Assembly (NCBI GenBank): GCA_045632105.1
Contig: JAZQVZ010000009.1
Span: 1 to 35,677, forward strand
DNA from: Eubacteriales bacterium
GTDB taxonomy: Bacteria > Bacillota > Clostridia > Oscillospirales > CAG-272
Reading direction: 5' to 3'
Length of the DNA: 35,677 nt
Under the pieces are notes generated by a model that was given only the letters and a program-made list of their open reading frames with translations, was not told where the DNA came from and ran no database searches. This document shows, in pieces, positions 1,415-35,677 of this stretch (its first letter is position 1; every line of letters begins with the position of its first letter). The position numbers and the translations under genes are program-made.

Positions 1415-2224
1415 ATGAGATACCTCAAAAGCCATAAAGCGCTTATTTCCATCGCGGCTACGGCAACCTGCCTTATTACCGCGGTTCTTCATACGATATC
1501 TATGCTTTCATTCTGCGACGAGTGGGGATATTTTGTAAGCGGAGCTATTCTCCCCATAATATCCTGCGCCCTCGTGGCATTCTCTGTAGTAGCATTTGCC
1601 GCAAGCGCATATTTGTGCTCTGACAAGGGTGAGCAGATAGGCGCTCCAAAGGAAGCGGTGGGATATACGTCTCTCCTTCCTGCACTTGCAATGCTGTTCC
1701 ACACCGCGGGGCTTATTCCCTCGGTTCTGGCAGATGCCGATATCTTCAGCATCGCACTTCTCATTTCTGCTCTTGCATCCGGCGTATTCTTCGTTATGAT
1801 TCCCTTTTCAAAGGAATACGGAAGCATCACGGCTCTCTGCGGTATAGGATTTATCGTTTGGTTAGGACTTTCCTGGATGAGCTCGTACAACGACCTTTAT
1901 ATTCCTATGAATTCACCCGAAAAGCTCTTCTTCCATTTCGGCTGCATAGGAGCGGCTCTGCTGACGGTAGCCGAGCTTCGAGCTATGTTCGGCATCTCAA
2001 AGCCCGCACTTTTCCGCTTCTCGCTATGGAGCGCACAGCTCCTGCTGCTTACGGCGGCTCTGCCTACGGCAGTGAAATTCATTCTCGAAAACGCTAAGAC
2101 CTCGATGTTCTCAGAGCATCTGGTCCTTCTCTGCCTTGCCGTCTATGCGATATCAAGAGGCATATCAATTACAGCCGCAGACATTCGAGCAAAAAAGCAA
2201 AGCTCTGACAACGAAGAAAATTGA
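1415..2224 (+). CDS. Hypothetical multi-pass membrane protein
   Basis: About 8 hydrophobic segments. GGAGG lies 4 nt before the ATG at 1415, which is preferred over the ORF-track start at 1373. Confidence 0.75.
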   Translation: MRYLKSHKALISIAATATCLITAVLHTISMLSFCDEWGYFVSGAILPIISCALVAFSVVAFAASAYLCSDKGEQIGAPKEAVGYTSLLPALAMLFHTAGLIPSVLADADIFSIALLISALASGVFFVMIPFSKEYGSITALCGIGFIVWLGLSWMSSYNDLYIPMNSPEKLFFHFGCIGAALLTVAELRAMFGISKPALFRFSLWSAQLLLLTAALPTAVKFILENAKTSMFSEHLVLLCLAVYAISRGISITAADIRAKKQSSDNEEN

Positions 2225-2236
2225 CAGGAGATAACT

Positions 2237-2797
2237 ATGAGCGCCAATGAACGCATACAATGGCTTCACAAAATGATATCCGAGAAATGCTATCCCAACG
2301 CCGCTCATCTTTCGGACAAGTTCTCGATCTCGCACCGACAGGCACAGCGCGACGTAGACTTTTTGCGTAAGGAGCTGAAGGCTCCCATGTCCTACTCGGC
2401 TATGCACAAGGGATATTTCTATACCGAGCCCTACTCTATCCCCCTTCTGCTGGAAAACGAGAACGACGCGGATTTCAGCGACGTTCTGCGTGGAATGAAG
2501 GAGTTTGACGACCGCAACGCCGAGCGCTCGGTCATTCAGCTTCAGTTCCCCTACACCGCGACACTACAGATAACCGACCGAATCACAGTGCTCAATCTCC
2601 GCAGCTTTATCGTAGCCGACGAGCCCAACCACTGCTACCGCTGTGAATTTCCAAGCGTTGAGCTCTTCCTTGGAATAATCATGGCCACGGGCGCTGACAT
2701 CAAGATAATCAAGCCTCTCTGGCTTCGCGAGCGTCTGGTAGACTTTGCCCACAGAGTACTCAAAAACAATCCTCCCGATGAGGACGAGGACGAATAA
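2237..2797 (+). CDS. WYL-family-like transcription regulator with N-terminal winged HTH and C-terminal WCX-like domain, apparently lacking the WYL domain
   Basis: N-terminus ERIQWLHKMI..YPNAAHLSDKFSISHRQAQRDVDFLR..LKAPMSY...KGYFY matches the HTH of WYL regulators. C-terminus GIIMATGADIKIIKPLWLRERL is WCX-like. Only 186 aa. SD AGGAG. Confidence 0.7.
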   Translation: MSANERIQWLHKMISEKCYPNAAHLSDKFSISHRQAQRDVDFLRKELKAPMSYSAMHKGYFYTEPYSIPLLLENENDADFSDVLRGMKEFDDRNAERSVIQLQFPYTATLQITDRITVLNLRSFIVADEPNHCYRCEFPSVELFLGIIMATGADIKIIKPLWLRERLVDFAHRVLKNNPPDEDEDE

Positions 2798-2830
2798 ATA
2801 AAAAATTTTTAAAAAAATTATAAAAAACTC

Positions 2831-2858
2831 TTGACAAAGAGAAATTTTATGATATAAT
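2831..2858 (+). promoter_or_regulatory. Sigma-A promoter for rplJ-rplL
   Basis: TTGACA-16 nt-TATAAT with an extended -10 TG and an AT-rich UP-like tract upstream. Confidence 0.8.
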
Positions 2859-2867
2859 ACTTGTGTT

Positions 2868-2990
2868 ATCCAAAGACAGCAGGTTCCCGTAAAGGCGCAA
2901 GCTTCCCTGCCGAGGAGATTTTGATCGCGAATATTTTTTCTGATCTTTCTTCTCGGGGTGCTATGCCTTTGGGAAGAAAGTTTTTTTATT
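2868..2990 (+). promoter_or_regulatory. Ribosomal protein L10 leader (autogenous attenuator)
   Basis: AAGACAGCAGG...CCTGCCGAGG core typical of the L10 leader, then a terminator-like hairpin CTTTCTTCTC...GGGAAGAAAG-T7 (2945-2987) upstream of rplJ. Confidence 0.8.
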
Positions 2991-3027
2991 TCCCGCTGTC
3001 AAGCAATTCTTATAGGAGGTAAGAACT

Positions 3028-3573
3028 ATGCCCAGCAATTCCATTCTCGAACAAAAGCAGGCGATCGTTGCTGACCTTGCCGAGCAGTTGAAGAATTCTC
3101 CCGCAGGCGTTGTAGTCAACTACCAGGGTATCACCGTTGATGCTGACACTAAGATGCGTAAGGCTCTCCGTGAGGCAGGCGTTAAGTACATGGTTATGAA
3201 GAATTCTCTCACCGGCAGAGCTTGTGACGAAGTCGGCCTTGGCGATATGAAGCAGTACCTCACCGGTATGACCGCTATCGCTATCGGAACAACAGATCCT
3301 GTTGCTCCCGCGAAGGTTCTCAAGGAGTACGCAGAGAAGATCGAGTCTTTCCAGATCCTCGCTGGTTACCTTGATGGCGCAGTAGTTGACGCAAACACCG
3401 TTAACACTCTCGCTGACATTCCTTCCAAAGAAGTTCTCATTGCAAAGCTCCTCGGAAGCATCAAGAGCCCCCTTTACGGCTTCGCTTATGCTATCCAGGC
3501 AATCGTCGACAAGGACGGAGAGGCTGCTCCCGCAGCAGAGGAAGCACCCGCAGCAGAGGCTGCAGCAGAATAA
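3028..3573 (+). CDS. rplJ: 50S ribosomal protein L10
   Basis: VVVNYQGITV..LRKALREAGVKYMVMKNSL, LTGMTAIA, LADIPSKEVLIAKLLG. SD AGGAGGT. Confidence 0.97.
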   Translation: MPSNSILEQKQAIVADLAEQLKNSPAGVVVNYQGITVDADTKMRKALREAGVKYMVMKNSLTGRACDEVGLGDMKQYLTGMTAIAIGTTDPVAPAKVLKEYAEKIESFQILAGYLDGAVVDANTVNTLADIPSKEVLIAKLLGSIKSPLYGFAYAIQAIVDKDGEAAPAAEEAPAAEAAAE

Positions 3574-4078: not shown

Positions 4079-4118
4079 AAAAAAATAGGACTGCTCAATC
4101 GAGCAGTCCTATTTTTTT
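4079..4118. terminator. Bidirectional terminator between rplL and the V-ATPase operon
   Basis: A-run, TAGGACTGCTC-aatc-GAGCAGTCCTA, T-run, lying between convergent genes. Confidence 0.9.
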
Positions 4119-4794
4119 ATTCTTCTTCGGCTTCTTCTCTGCCGTTCTGTCTTTGCGCCTTGAGCATCATATCCTTGACCTTCATAAGTCGAGTGGTATT
4201 TCCTCGCTCGTTCTCGTCAAGCTTCATCTTTATGCTCTTTATTGCCGCAAGGTACTGGGGCATCATAATATACTCCAGAGCGTTTACGCGTCTGCGGGTC
4301 TTTTCGATCTCCTCAGCCAAAAGCTGAGCCTTTTTTTCAAGCTCTGCCATTCGCAACAGATCCTCAAGAATTCCGTTAAGCTCCCTGAGTGAATTGTCAA
4401 GCTCACCCGAGGTAAAGGCAAGACCGTAGTTGAAGCTTTCAGCCACAGCTCCTCCCTCACCCGAAGCTACGCTGCAAAATTCAGGAACGGTAACGCTCAT
4501 CATATTTTTATAAGAAACCTCAAGCTTGCCCTCCTTCTTGGGAGATATCAAAGCTTCCTCTATCATTGCAGGATTTCCCGACGCGCTTGCCACCGAAAAA
4601 CCGCGGTAGTACGCGTCAAGAGCCGCCTCAACTCTCTGTCGAAGCGCCTTGTCCTCGCGCACCACCTCAAGAAACTGCTTCATAAGCTCGTCGCGCTTAT
4701 CCTTCAGCAGCTTGTGTCCTCGGCGAGCGGTGGTATATCTGCCCTGAAGCTTTTTCATCTCCATTCGGGTAGGATTTACTCTTATCTCTGCCAT
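4117..4794 (-). CDS. ntpD: V/A-type ATPase subunit D
   Basis: VNPTRME, RRGHKLLKDKRDELM, IEKTRRRVNALEY, KMKLDENER. Confidence 0.96.
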   Translation of the reverse strand: MAEIRVNPTRMEMKKLQGRYTTARRGHKLLKDKRDELMKQFLEVVREDKALRQRVEAALDAYYRGFSVASASGNPAMIEEALISPKKEGKLEVSYKNMMSVTVPEFCSVASGEGGAVAESFNYGLAFTSGELDNSLRELNGILEDLLRMAELEKKAQLLAEEIEKTRRRVNALEYIMMPQYLAAIKSIKMKLDENERGNTTRLMKVKDMMLKAQRQNGREEAEEE

Positions 4795-13494: not shown

Positions 13495-15660
13495 TTAATT
13501 AACAGACGTAGTGTCAGGAGAGAACATTCTTCCAACTCGGCTCTTCAGCGCAGGATGCTTCTCAAGTCGGGGATCCTCGGCTATAAGGCTCTTTGCCTCG
13601 GCAAACGCCGCGCTCATAAGTCCTGTATCGTCGCAAAGCTCGGCAAGCTTGAAACGGACGCCGCCGCTCTGCCTCATTCTACCCTCCCCCGCAGAGCGAA
13701 GAAAGTCACCGGGTCCGCGCATCGCAAGATCCTTTTCGGCAATGCTGTAACCGTCGTAGGAGCCCTTGATAGTCATAAGCCTCTCCTTTGCGCCACCCTC
13801 CTCGTTTATAAGCTCGGACACCAGAACACAGTAGGATTTACGGTTGCCGCGTCCTACTCGCCCGCGAAGCTGGTGAAGCTGAGAAAGACCGAATCTCTCG
13901 GCATTTTCAACTATCATAAGCGACGCCGCAGGCACGTTAACACCAACCTCGATAACCGTAGTTGATACAAGCACGTCGGTCTTACCCGAAGCAAAATCCT
14001 GCATCTTCTTTTCTTTTTCTCGGCTCTTCAGCTTTCCGTGAAGGAAGTCCACGTTAAGCTCAGGCAGAGCCGCTGAAAGCTCCTCGGAGAATTTTACAGC
14101 CGACTTCAGTCGAGGCCTCTGACGCTTTTCCTCTCTTATGTCGAGAAGATCAGCGCCCGTAACGATGCTCTCCATAAGAAGATCAGCGCCGTCCTCCTCG
14201 CTCTCCTCGCTTTCCTCAACCGCAGGGCAGACCACGTAGACCTGACCCCCCTCGGCTACCTGCTTGCGAATAAAGCCGTTAAGTCTTTCACGATAGCTCT
14301 CGTCCACCACAAAGGTGTCCACTCTCTGACGTCCGGGAGGTATCTCGTCGATAGTAGATATATCAAGGTCACCGTAAAGAGCCAACGCCAGGGAACGCGG
14401 AATAGGGGTCGCGCTCATTACCAAAACGTGCGCCATAGCGTTCTTTTTAGCAAGAGCCGCCCTCTGGTCAACGCCAAATCGGTGCTGCTCGTCAACCACG
14501 GCAAGTCCCAGAGAATAGAAATCCACTCCCTCGGATATCAGCGCCTGCGTACCAACCACCACGTCTATCCTGTCCTCGCCCTCGGATGAAAGCGCAGCAT
14601 ATATTTTTCTCTTTTCTGTGGCAGAGGTCGCTCCTATCAGCAAAGCAGAGCGAAGCCCAAGGGCAGAAAATATTCCCTCAAGAGTTTCATAGTGCTGTCG
14701 CGCAAGTATTTCGGTAGGCGCCATAAGAGCCGCCTGATGTCCGCTCTGCACGGCAAAAAGCATTGCCGCCGCGGCGCAGACAGTCTTTCCGCTTCCAACG
14801 TCGCCCACTACCATTCGGCTCATAGCTCTGTCACGCGCCATATCGCTTCTTATCTCTTCTATTACCCTGCTCTGAGCCCCCGTAAGCTTATAAGGCAGGA
14901 TGCGCTCAAGAGGAGCCGCATCGCCCTCGGTACAAGGAAATGCAGGGGCGCGTCGGCTCTCGGCTCCCGCCATTGAAAGCCCCAACGCGAACTCAAAAAA
15001 TTCATCAAATATCAGTCTCTTCTTCGCCGATGCAAGAGCCACAAAGTTCTCGGGAAAATGTATATTTCTCAAGGCGTAAGAGCGCAAACAAAGGGTATAT
15101 TTCCTACGGATATCCTCGGGCAGAGGATCCTCACCCTCGCCTCCTATAGAAGCGAGTACCATAGCCGAGCGCATATCCTTGGCTATCTGCTTCTGGCTTA
15201 TCCCCTCGGTCAGGGGATACACGGGCATCAACGAAGGAAGCTCTGTCTCCTCGCTCCACGGCTCAAAGGCAGGTGAGCTCATACAGTATTTGCCCGCCTT
15301 CTTCTCTATTCTACCGTAAAATCTAAATGTGCTTCCGAGGGTAAAAACGTCTCTCAGATACTCCTGATTGAAAAATGTTATCTCACAGGTAGCGCTATCG
15401 TCATAGGCGCGAAGCTTTGTAAGGGTCATTCTGCCCTTTATTCTTACGCTCTTGGGCTGAGTGCCCACCGTAAGTATGTAAGCCGCCTTGGATATGCCGT
15501 CGCTCTCCTCGATAAGCTTGATATTTCCTCTGTCCTCGTAGCCACGGGGATAGTGGCAGAGCAGATCTTCCACGTTTTCCACGCCCATAGCCGCATAACG
15601 CGCCGCTCTCGCCGCGCCCACACCATATAGCTTTTTAATATCTGTGCTATGCGTCCTCAT
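13495..15660 (-). CDS. recG: ATP-dependent DNA helicase RecG
   Basis: DLLCHYPRGYEDR wedge region, GDVGSGKT, MAPTEILARQH, DEQHRFG, MSATPIPR, TTVIEVGVNVP, RFGLSQLHQLRGRVGRG, DLAMRGPGDF. ATG at 15660 with GGAGG. Confidence 0.97.
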   Translation of the reverse strand: MRTHSTDIKKLYGVGAARAARYAAMGVENVEDLLCHYPRGYEDRGNIKLIEESDGISKAAYILTVGTQPKSVRIKGRMTLTKLRAYDDSATCEITFFNQEYLRDVFTLGSTFRFYGRIEKKAGKYCMSSPAFEPWSEETELPSLMPVYPLTEGISQKQIAKDMRSAMVLASIGGEGEDPLPEDIRRKYTLCLRSYALRNIHFPENFVALASAKKRLIFDEFFEFALGLSMAGAESRRAPAFPCTEGDAAPLERILPYKLTGAQSRVIEEIRSDMARDRAMSRMVVGDVGSGKTVCAAAAMLFAVQSGHQAALMAPTEILARQHYETLEGIFSALGLRSALLIGATSATEKRKIYAALSSEGEDRIDVVVGTQALISEGVDFYSLGLAVVDEQHRFGVDQRAALAKKNAMAHVLVMSATPIPRSLALALYGDLDISTIDEIPPGRQRVDTFVVDESYRERLNGFIRKQVAEGGQVYVVCPAVEESEESEEDGADLLMESIVTGADLLDIREEKRQRPRLKSAVKFSEELSAALPELNVDFLHGKLKSREKEKKMQDFASGKTDVLVSTTVIEVGVNVPAASLMIVENAERFGLSQLHQLRGRVGRGNRKSYCVLVSELINEEGGAKERLMTIKGSYDGYSIAEKDLAMRGPGDFLRSAGEGRMRQSGGVRFKLAELCDDTGLMSAAFAEAKSLIAEDPRLEKHPALKSRVGRMFSPDTTSVN

Positions 15661-34644: not shown

Positions 34645-34720
34645 TGGGGCATCGCCAAGCGGTAAGGCAACGGACTCTGACTCCGTCATTACCTAGGTTC
34701 GAATCCTAGTGCCCCAGCCA
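34645..34720 (+). tRNA. tRNA-Gln(CTG)
   Basis: Acceptor stem TGGGGCA/TGCCCCA, anticodon arm ACGGA-CT-CTG-AC-TCCGT, T-arm GGTTCGAATCC, encoded CCA. Confidence 0.97.
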
Positions 34721-34726
34721 AACAAC

Positions 34727-34752
34727 AAGCCACCCAATCGGGTGGCTTTTTT
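34727..34752 (+). terminator. Terminator after tRNA-Gln
   Basis: AAGCCACCC-aatc-GGGTGGCTT followed by a T run. Confidence 0.8.
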
Positions 34753-34760
34753 GTTGTTTG

Positions 34761-34906
34761 ACTGGGGCACTCGTCGCTTCGAATCTCGCTCTGCGAGCGA
34801 AGCGACGCAGAATTAGGTTCGCATTCGAGCCGAAAGCCGACGGGAGCTCGCTCACGGGAGGCTCGGCGAAGAATCCTCGCCGCAGGCGAGTACCCTAGTG
34901 CCCGCC
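34761..34906 (+). repeat. GC-rich multi-hairpin element downstream of tRNA-Gln carrying antisense and sense copies of the tRNA 3' end
   Basis: CTGGGGCACT (34762-34771) is the reverse complement of the tRNA 3' strand; CGTCGCTTCG...CGAAGCGACG hairpin; CTCGCC-gca-GGCGAG hairpin; CCTAGTGCCC (34894-34903) is identical to tRNA 34705-34714. Confidence 0.7.
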
Positions 34907-34924
34907 GCAATTTGCCGAAAATCC

Positions 34925-34953
34925 TTGCAATCCTCGCGCTCTTATGCTACAAT
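34925..34953 (+). promoter_or_regulatory. Sigma-A-like promoter heading the AT-rich gene array
   Basis: TTGCAA-17 nt-TACAAT with extended TG. Confidence 0.7.
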
Positions 34954-34965
34954 AAACTCACCGAT

Positions 34966-34984
34966 AAATAAGAATTTGCAGGTG
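34966..34984 (+). repeat. Cassette-boundary direct repeat, copy 1
   Basis: AAATAAGAATTTGCAGGTG, 18/19 identical to 35537-35555. Confidence 0.75.
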
Positions 34985-34989
34985 AGATA

Positions 34990-35508
34990 ATGATTATTTT
35001 AATTACAGGAGCATCGCACACGGGCAAAACTGCACTTGCACAAAAACTGCTCGAAAAATATAAATATCCATATCTTTCAGTAGACCATCTAAAAATGGGG
35101 CTGATTCGTAGCGGTAATACAGAACTTACTCCTATGAGTGATGATACGGATCTGACCGCTTACTTATGGCCCATTGTTCGTGAAATGATAAAAACTGCTA
35201 TTGAGAATAATCAGAACCTAATTGTCGAAGGTTGCTATGTTCCATTCGATTGGCAGAAAGACTTTGACTCCGAACATCTTGAAAAAATCAAATATTACTG
35301 TCTGGTAATGAGTGAGGAATATATCAGAAACCACTTTGCCGACATTAAGAAATATGCAAGAGTCATTGAAAATCGTTTGGATGATGAATGGTGTACAATG
35401 GAGAGTGTATTGGCAGATAATGCAGAAGTATTGGCGCTTGCGAAAAGACATAATTCAAACTATATTCTTATTGATGACCAATACGAGATTAATATTGATT
35501 TAGATTGA
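34990..35508 (+). CDS. P-loop NTPase / nucleotide-kinase-like protein (AT-rich accessory gene)
   Basis: MIILITGASHTGKT Walker A, LSVDHLKMGL, LIVEG. Confidence 0.85.
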   Translation: MIILITGASHTGKTALAQKLLEKYKYPYLSVDHLKMGLIRSGNTELTPMSDDTDLTAYLWPIVREMIKTAIENNQNLIVEGCYVPFDWQKDFDSEHLEKIKYYCLVMSEEYIRNHFADIKKYARVIENRLDDEWCTMESVLADNAEVLALAKRHNSNYILIDDQYEINIDLD

Positions 35509-35509
35509 T

Positions 35510-35555
35510 AAATTCTAATATGTCGAACAGTTAGGAAAATAAGAATTTGTAGGTG
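35510..35555 (+). repeat. Inter-gene imperfect inverted repeat containing direct repeat copy 2
   Basis: AAATTCTAATAT (35510-35521) pairs with AAATAAGAATTT (35537-35548) at 10/12 positions; 15-nt spacer. Confidence 0.7.
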
Positions 35556-35558
35556 TGA

Positions 35559-35677
35559 ATGATGAAAACTTTATATATGATTGGTGGCACTATGGGAGTT
35601 GGAAAAACAACTGTGTGCCAACAGCTCAAACAGGATTTACCGAATAGTGTATTTCTTGACGGAGATTGGTGTTGGGA
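35559..35677 (+). CDS. P-loop NTPase / nucleotide-kinase-like protein, 3'-truncated by the window edge (not in the ORF track)
   Basis: MMKTLYMIGGTMGVGKTTVCQQLKQDLPNSVFLDGDWCW; Walker A GTMGVGKT. The alternative start ATG at 35562 fits the AGGTG spacing better. Confidence 0.85.
   Translation, partial: MMKTLYMIGGTMGVGKTTVCQQLKQDLPNSVFLDGDWCW

Follow-up and report, generated by a model that had tools for sequence, protein, structure and literature searches.

Bracketed gene cassettes in gut Clostridia have an integron-like layout without integron parts

Introduction

In the textbook view, it is through integrons that bacteria accumulate single genes and trade them. Mobile insertion cassettes (MICs), among them MIC231 of the Bacillus cereus group, carry passenger genes, without a transposase, between the terminal repeats of a known insertion sequence (IS) and give target duplications, and in the pdif (XerC/XerD) modules of Acinetobacter plasmids genes lying between short inverse sites are reassorted among replicons with no dedicated recombinase known nearby. 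For T4-type phages, the accessible part of one study (PMC2839356) describes PeSL modules, short conserved expression modules on either side of small variable genes, at which insertions, deletions and replacements have their breakpoints, and documents gene shuffling and mini-circles; the accessible part of a survey of complete genomes (PMC4889954) reports no complete integrons in Firmicutes. Here we describe the right-hand end of a 35,677-nt stretch of DNA (the window), which is the entire contig JAZQVZ010000009.1 (C9) of a Eubacteriales bacterium (Oscillospirales, CAG-272) and in which two small genes follow a single promoter, each preceded by the same 19-nt word (the 19-mer). We propose, with a probability of roughly 45%, that the window holds a promoter and two members of a large, horizontally exchanged pool of gene modules of gut Clostridia, here called bracketed cassettes, whose cargo would be swapped within short conserved cores by a trans-acting enzyme. 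The pool is apparently undescribed: we found no description of the motifs or of such a system in the searchable literature, subscription journals lying outside its coverage.

Two bracketed genes behind one promoter

The window's own assembly (G000; other G labels denote genomes and L labels loci) amounts to 1.36 Mb in 116 contigs and is 83% complete. The features on which the argument rests are the following.

34925 to 34953, plus strand: promoter-like site TTGCAA-17-TACAAT with TG before the -10 box; 9/12 positions match; ends 12 nt before 19-mer copy 1
34962 to 34978, plus strand: copy 1 of the left bracket (IR-L), CGATAAATAAGAATTTG, the 5' bracket of cassette 1 (from a 5-locus alignment and a 161-instance profile)
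34966 to 34984, plus strand: 19-mer copy 1, AAATAAGAATTTGCAGGTG, IR-L core plus Shine-Dalgarno (SD) sequence AGGTG (sequence read)
34990 to 35508, plus strand: cargo of cassette 1, a 172-aa P-loop kinase-like protein (kinase 1; Pfam AAA_33, E 5e-6)
35510 to 35530, plus strand: right bracket (IR-R) of cassette 1, AAATTCTAATATGTCG plus AACAG, the 3' bracket (sequence read)
35510 to 35555, plus strand: full inter-cassette junction of IR-R, AACAG, TTAGGA, IR-L core and SD (IR-R to IR-L offset 27 nt)
35537 to 35555, plus strand: 19-mer copy 2, AAATAAGAATTTGTAGGTG (sequence read)
35559 to 35677, plus strand: cargo of cassette 2, first 39 codons of a P-loop protein (kinase 2; Pfam AAA_18), open at its 3' end

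The 19-mer is IR-L joined to an SD sequence, and the initial annotation had placed its two copies, 571 nt apart, accurately to the base. The ATG of kinase 1 lies 5 nt past copy 1 and that of kinase 2 lies 3 nt past copy 2, from where the reading frame runs off the contig end; full-length relatives of kinase 2 have 165 aa. The single promoter claimed for this region was recovered as a promoter-like site, and the reported drop in GC content near 34950 was measured as a fall from 0.57 to 0.33–0.37 (0.573 at 34650–34949, 0.373 at 34950–35249 and 0.327 at 35250–35549; contig 0.49). A match of kinase 2 to the Gar/GrdA family (E 1e-8) reaches 35 bits against a cut-off of 170, and we do not count the protein as a member.

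Allowing up to three mismatches, the 19-mer matches the window at these two sites only, against a chance expectation of 0.01, and two or more matches arose in 0/100 shuffles. With up to four mismatches, the whole assembly gives five matches: the window's two, one with two mismatches and two with four. The two-mismatch copy (G000 C60:8986) lies inside a GC-rich coding region and was judged to be due to chance. Because the window is a whole contig and its last 20–55 nt overlap no other contig of the assembly, no rightward extension is possible there.

Anatomy of the brackets

IR-R has the general form CAAATTCCAATTTATCG, usually followed by AACAG, and is an imperfect inverse of IR-L, which agrees with the reverse complement of IR-R at 15/17 positions. 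Each contains an invariant core (AAATAAGAATTTG on the left, AAATTCCAAT on the right) built as a near-palindrome, AAAT-nnn-AATTT, so that IR-L and IR-R are also alike as direct repeats. When five loci are aligned, similarity begins at the CGAT of CGATAAATAAGAATTTG and ends past the stop codon at ...TCGAACAG or ...AAATTCCAATnnnTCGAACAG; across 112 non-junction instances, the information content falls from about 2 to 0.2–0.8 bits within a few bases on the upstream side of the core. The SD TAGGTG is common, yet many units have another (ACGAAAGGAG, GAGG... and others), which sets the conserved boundary at ...AATTTG.

These results revise the site as first drawn. The AGGTG end does serve as the SD in both window copies; TAGGTG is not universal among units and belongs to the cargo side, and the conserved elements are CGAT plus AAATAAGAATTTG at the 5' end and a 3' element that reaches ...TCGAACAG. 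The left arm described between the two genes (AAATTCTAAT) indeed starts at 35510, 1 nt past the TGA stop codon (35506–35508), and is able to pair with AGAATTT of 19-mer copy 2; both its position and the inverted repeat are real, but the resulting hairpin is weak (DNA -2.1 kcal/mol, z -0.4; RNA -6.8 kcal/mol, z -0.6) and no better than in shuffled sequence.

Where two units adjoin, the geometry is fixed. The offset from IR-R to IR-L was 27 nt in 20/20 junctions found, giving a junction of ~47 nt with a near-constant text, of which 35510–35555 of the window is typical. In a less common variant, found at L069 and L092, the junction is a clean palindrome, ...TTTRTnG AACAGTT CGAYAAA..., which folds well (DNA -8.1 kcal/mol, z -3.9), unlike the common junction. 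Terminal cassettes retain IR-R only. At 64/112 instances outside junctions and outside the P platform described below, the distance from the end of a -10-like box to the 19-mer is 9, 12 or 13 nt. A structured RNA was considered and rejected, since an Rfam search returned nothing at the motifs or at the P-platform leader.

Distribution and cargo

Copies of the 19-mer are plentiful elsewhere in Clostridia. We collected instances with the exact 19-mer, taking one genome per species, and obtained at least 123 contigs, nearly all of them from metagenome-assembled genomes of Clostridia that live in the guts of animals and humans; the hosts among the matches listed include Oscillospiraceae, Acutalibacteraceae and Christensenellaceae as well as other Clostridia. 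Three matches, in Flavobacterium, Syntrophobacterales and Bacteroidetes records, are followed by no open reading frame (ORF) and look like chance. An ORF starts 3–8 nt past the 19-mer in 112/122 distinct instances among the matches listed. ORFs behind the 19-mer (up to three mismatches) form 27 clusters, and ~25 unrelated families of small genes have the word directly before them. Among the Pfam names of the clusters are GNAT, CAT (E 1e-62), GrpB, several methyltransferases, CDP-alcohol phosphatidyltransferase, EamA, Rce1-like, flavodoxin, cyclase and a series of domains of unknown function (DUFs), besides the P-loop kinases. At the other end of the unit, an IR-R-like word (AAATTCCAAT) lies within 40 nt of the stop codon in 41/58 complete cargos, as compared with 64/2000 random windows (3%).

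Searches with IR-L itself give the same picture. In 72 genomes of the window's genus, IR-L with at most one mismatch has 179 matches against 14 for a reversed control, and in 401 genomes across the class, 39 of which are positive, 52 exact matches compare with 16 for the control. One Acutalibacteraceae genome holds 19 IR-L-like sites (0 for the control) dispersed before units of 0.4–4 kb, some of them multi-gene.

The spread is patchy, crosses families and comes with a foreign base composition. Cargo GC content is 0.33–0.37 in a contig of 0.49. Kinase 1 occurs in only 6/60 other genomes of the window's genus, its homologues in 18/101 related genomes have differing surroundings, and it recurs at 85–91% aa identity in other genera and families (up to 85% in another family among those 18), again in unrelated surroundings. 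Homologues on Clostridium plasmids, annotated "adenylate kinase" or "AAA family ATPase", share ~70% nt identity; plasmids were considered as carriers and set aside, the 10 matching PLSDB records covering only the kinase-1 coding part (69–71% identity), without brackets. Viral contigs gave four matches, one due to chance and three (L245, L246, L247; IMG/VR) from one phage lineage, whose only cassette has kinase 2 as its cargo and comes with a promoter of its own, IR-L and IR-R. With only one lineage carrying a cassette, we rejected phages as the main carrier.

Reassortment of cargo and context

Cargo and upstream context combine freely. The contexts found upstream of IR-L comprise the junction, a "P" platform (the 3' end of a RAYT-like gene, see below) and at least three promoter families; five context classes carry 5–9 cargo families each, and both window genes are present in all six classes, "other" included. 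The kinase-2 cassette is preceded by at least eight different upstream cassettes via an identical junction. The bases flanking the cores (CGAT vs AGGA on the left, TTTA/TTTG vs AGG on the right) track the context and not the cargo. Since they stay with the context, the exchange points would fall inside the invariant cores, which would then be the crossover sites.

Most units are solitary, with their own promoter at a fixed distance. Arrays of three to at least four units occur at L085, L088 and L043, and L054 also holds an array; as in the window, the cassettes of these four arrays are co-oriented, promoterless and placed behind a common promoter. The unit plan of the initial annotation, a half-site, an SD, a promoterless ORF and an inverted half-site with the first unit behind a promoter, is found in related arrays as well as in the window. 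A second platform (platform #2) is a 150-nt module composed of a hairpin (GTACTCTAAAGGACAGTAC), a terminator and a promoter, which precedes IR-L in 11 different surroundings.

L053, L059, L076, L087, L088, L112, L115, L119, L120, L125, L042: the 150-nt module

At L042 and L088 an inverted hairpin matching that of the platform closes the unit. Between this 150-nt 5' platform and a shared 3' tail lie one cassette at L042 and L087 and three at L088, so that comparison of loci reveals the cassette-precise gain or loss between fixed ends that the initial annotation had proposed to look for. Hybrid junctions were also seen: the IR-R core runs straight into an SD at L043 (twice), L049 and L071, and one junction, at L208, joins an IR-L core to an IR-R tail (L238:3002 and L078:1973 are candidates only).

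Genes of two kinds closely precede some cassettes. A gene for a Y-family DNA polymerase of ~507 aa (L085 611–2134 and L043 1859–3379) is followed directly by a cassette array at both loci, a hint that conjugative or integrative elements carry some of the arrays. Genes for XRE-type helix-turn-helix (HTH) proteins, in several of which the C-terminal part is Cys-rich, are found at L036 (1766–2527), L075 (3059–3883) and L066 (698–1378), and also at L052 (4334–5305), L029 and L082; these proteins may act as regulators through binding to the near-palindromic IR-L.

Metagenomic assemblies treat the brackets as branch points. We mapped Logan contigs from four gut runs of four studies on the window, a type of data in which rare forms do not show. 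The summed k-mer depth in the four runs is 395–934 in the bin of 19-mer copy 1, as compared with 8–16 in the preceding bin, and 1672–3388 in the junction bin, as compared with 0–63, the junction words being 10–100 times deeper than their flanks. Several upstream sequences converge at 35503–35543 and several continuations fork at 34982 and at 35549–35555, two of which match other cassettes of the set described above. One unrelated 95-nt skip was seen in one Logan contig. Similarly, 18/80 instances lie 100–165 nt before a contig end, most of them in contigs with "k141" in their names, and the window's contig ends 140 nt past copy 2; breaks ~140 nt past the 19-mer are the expected outcome of de Bruijn assembly where the onward sequence occurs in several contexts.

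RAYT-like genes and larger dispersed units

At L090/L182, L106 and L051 a promoter drives a 183-aa RAYT-like Y1 HUH gene, the 3' flank of which leads into IR-L. The gene copies are as follows.

L090 (= L182, G014:C37), 4087 to 4635, minus strand: RAYT-like gene
L106, 3400 to 3930: RAYT-like gene

The protein matches NCBIfam REP_Tyr_transpos (E 2.7e-17) with 63 bits against a curated cut-off of 80, and PDB entry 4er8 with E 1.4e-8. RAYT-like genes are present in 53/72 genomes of the genus, are multi-copy (up to 11 matches per genome) and hold REP-like GTAG-headed palindromes inside the reading frame. Of 30 copies examined, 4 are followed by IR-L and ~13 by a conserved 3' element and some cargo. 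GTAG-headed palindromes and RAYT-like Y1 HUH genes are both present in the genus, tied to one cassette platform, which may recall REP/REPIN-RAYT systems. The RAYTs described for Proteobacteria are single-copy and domesticated, whereas the genes here are multi-copy, with the palindromes inside the ORF and variable cargo after it, and their association with the brackets is weak and partial.

In the window's genus, a dispersed repeat precedes the kinase-1 cassette of G060. A full unit of this kind consists, in order, of a ~50-nt end with a GTAG-headed palindrome, a palindrome with an extended -10 box, a structured leader, IR-L, the variable cargo, IR-R, a terminator and the inverse of the first end. 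In five genomes the ~50-nt end motif is found 5–17 times per genome (1–2 times for the reversed control), often as inverted pairs 0.7–1.4 kb apart. Units of 0.7–1.4 kb with one variable gene lie at L016 9575–10470 and ~14400–15200 (G060:C44) and at L162–L181. In G060, one such unit is flanked by glnA and a cysteine desulfurase gene; the same blocks are ~1260 nt apart in G060 and only ~380 nt apart in G015.

Mechanism and alternatives

In the reading that we prefer, a module comprises IR-L (CGATAAATAAGAATTTG), its own SD, an ORF and IR-R (CAAATTCCAATTTATCG, AACAG), and adjoining modules share one fixed ~47-nt junction formed by IR-R and IR-L. Cargo would be exchanged by recombination inside the cores AAATAAGAATTTG (left) and AAATTCCAAT (right), the bases outside them staying with the context. 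The most likely driver would be a dedicated, sequence-specific, trans-acting recombinase or transposase that recognizes the cores. The brackets would double as a ready-made 5' untranslated region (UTR) with SD and as a 3' UTR, so that a newly placed gene could be expressed from any upstream promoter.

Several results weigh against the exchange of cassettes by such an enzyme. The 120 loci have no neighboring gene in common, and no recombinase cluster is conserved beside them; the recombinase-driven capture that the initial annotation thought possible is an inference here. The RAYT-like protein was tried for the role and rejected, there being no clear co-occurrence: IR-L is present in 44/53 genomes with and 13/19 genomes without a RAYT-like gene, and the gene is directly upstream of cassettes at only three loci. 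Target-site duplications are not convincing (a direct repeat of at least 6 nt in 12/54 units, as compared with a mean of 5.9 and a maximum of 11 in shuffled sequence). For an empty P/T platform, the joined pattern has no exact match in 72 genomes, all matches carrying 1–2 mismatches, and neither the back-joint of a circle nor a 571-nt skip appears in the contigs of the four metagenomic runs, where rare forms would not show. The common junction folds weakly, and the fixed promoter distance of single units is explicable by selection on expression. Finally, because instances were sampled by the exact 19-mer, TAGGTG appears more conserved, and kinase 1 and kinase 2 appear more frequent among the cargos, than is the case.

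A process in which no dedicated enzyme takes part, similar to the shuffling at PeSL modules, is a real possibility, albeit one that we doubt. The brackets would then be expression signals among which homologous or short-homology recombination or slippage swaps, deletes and stacks genes, frequent exchange keeping the modules uniform. This would suit the placement of IR-L, which is always in the transcribed leader, 9–13 nt past a -10-like box in the 64/112 instances mentioned above, and of IR-R, between the stop codon and the terminator. It would also suit the platforms (the 150-nt terminator and promoter in its 11 contexts, and the combination of promoter, leader and terminator), which as dispersed repeats offer longer homology, the hybrid junctions, which resemble deletions between AATTTG direct repeats, and the 5' similarity boundary, which varies between CGAT... 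only, ATCGRACAGnnCGAT... and the full junction. No recombinase was found beside the loci, and shuffling and mini-circles are on record for PeSL in the accessible part of that study (PMC2839356). Such a model has more difficulty with the length of identity, which is often just 13–23 nt and short for RecA-dependent exchange, and it makes the inverse symmetry of IR-L and IR-R superfluous. Moreover, the cores are identical across host families in units whose cargos are at 64–90% aa identity, which points to sequence-specific recognition.

The enzyme-based reading can be pushed further, to a form that we regard as somewhat unlikely: gut Clostridia may own an exchange system independent of integrons, consisting of a two-part near-palindromic site (IR-R, a 7-nt AACAGTT-type spacer and IR-L) and a trans-acting enzyme, possibly of HUH/RAYT type and working on single-stranded DNA. 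It would plug single genes, including chloramphenicol acetyltransferases and resistance-type enzymes, behind promoters on chromosomes, hairpin-ended micro-elements and phages, across many families.

The brackets might instead be a regulatory or translational motif and nothing else, with IR-L an operator or standard leader and IR-R its partner (for instance, if the mRNA 5' and 3' ends pair), both maintained by selection across a regulon of accessory genes, and with the genes moving by integrative and conjugative elements, phages or IS elements. We consider this improbable. The near-palindromic core does overlap the point at which transcription would be expected to start, several loci have XRE-type HTH genes immediately before the cassettes (cluster 3 comprising six loci), the predicted IR-L:IR-R RNA duplex has -12.5 kcal/mol, and the 19 dispersed IR-L-like sites of one genome precede 0.4–4-kb genes that include multi-gene units. 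A mere motif, however, would not lead one to expect that the similarity between loci starts and stops exactly at the brackets, that one platform holds one or three cassettes, or that the brackets are hubs with many continuations in four metagenomes, and identity at 19/19 positions over ~25 gene families, in hosts from many families, far exceeds what is usual for an operator.

It is next to inconceivable that the window belongs to a classical integron, or to a cluster of attC sites lacking an integrase (CALIN), with attI/attC cassettes moved by IntI. The cassette logic seen by the initial annotation holds: as in integrons, a promoter is followed by promoterless, co-oriented, mostly single-gene units with imperfect inverted repeats between them, cassettes recur across arrays, and the cargos are of similar kinds (GNAT, CAT, small kinases, DUFs). 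Membership in the integrons does not follow from it. The integron integrase model TIGR02249 is over its cut-off in 0/5 genomes (G000, 83% complete; G116, G060, G014 and G016), the best score being 48.9 bits against a cut-off of 265 and the same as in control genomes. Judged without an attC covariance model, there is no attC-type site, the junction being ~47 nt long with a weak fold. Adjacent 6/7 matches to the attC core words RYYYAAC and GTTRRRY can be read at window positions 35522–35537 (GTCGAAC-A-GTTAGGA); they are probably a by-product of the AAC-N-GTT palindrome. The statement that classical attC cores are lacking holds good; these near-cores stand back to back and not at the ends of a folded site of 50–140 nt. 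A half-site is present at both cassette ends here, instead of one attC at the 3' end; mostly solitary units behind their own promoters make a poor fit to the classical integron platform; and the hosts are Gram-positive anaerobes, in keeping with the absence of complete integrons from Firmicutes in the accessible part of the genome survey (PMC4889954).

A resemblance due to chance, or a local one between the translation-initiation regions of two neighboring paralogues, which the small P-loop proteins encoded by both genes and the presence of just two copies in the assembly might suggest, is refuted by the 0/100 shuffles with two matches, by the occurrence of the word before ~25 unrelated families on at least 123 contigs, by homologues of both genes with the same flanks and by gene content that varies at equivalent loci.

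Comparison with other modular systems

Bracketed cassettes share with MICs the terminal inverted repeats around passenger genes, the lack of a transposase inside, the dispersal and, presumably, movement in trans. They differ in that no parent IS is known, duplications are unsupported and the distance from promoters is fixed; no bracketed unit with transposase cargo was found among the loci examined, in a search that was not exhaustive. With pdif modules they share discrete units bounded by inverse short sites, although the brackets appear to bear no likeness to dif sites (11+6+11 nt).

The likeness to PeSL extends to platform #2, which is also a composite of terminator and promoter situated at gene-replacement breakpoints. 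In the accessible part of that study (PMC2839356), the PeSL modules lie in phage hyperplastic regions and have mini-circles documented for them alone, whereas the units here lie in bacterial chromosomes and add a 5' UTR with SD and an inversely symmetric 3' bracket.

If our reading is correct, a separate cassette pool in dominant gut anaerobes would help to explain the sharing of small accessory and resistance-type genes, and IR-L and IR-R would provide a simple sequence tag with which to mine that pool from metagenomes; the brackets would also account for recurrent assembly breaks. A dedicated enzyme, if it exists, would make this a new recombination system. Should there be none, the cassettes would be to bacteria what PeSL shuffling is to phages, on a far larger scale.

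The tRNA side of the locus

Upstream of the promoter, the window carries the following features.

right end of the window, before tRNA-Gln, minus strand: tRNA-Arg (ARAGORN)
34645 to 34720, plus strand: tRNA-Gln(CTG), the chromosomal anchor upstream of the variable region (ARAGORN; Rfam tRNA, 58.7 bits)
34727 to 34748, plus strand: terminator-like hairpin 3' of tRNA-Gln
34734 to 34906, plus strand: GC-rich element of ~170 nt with degenerate copies of the tRNA 3' end, the last stretch common to relatives

The segment from tRNA-Arg to ~34906 is conserved in eight relatives. Homology stops at 34902–34906, and beyond ~34906 each of the eight has a different promoter and small gene, with the exception of G038, in which homology continues through the promoter to 34955 and is lost thereafter. 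Given the shared tRNA side and the differing genes after it, the cassettes sit in a variable spot beside tRNA-Gln. The GC-rich element itself is present in two to three tandem copies in G032:C34, G038:C73, G030:C1 and G022:C20, ~0.7–4 kb apart and with different genes between them, and may represent another modular array, with no relation to the cassettes, or else integrated elements stacked at this tRNA.

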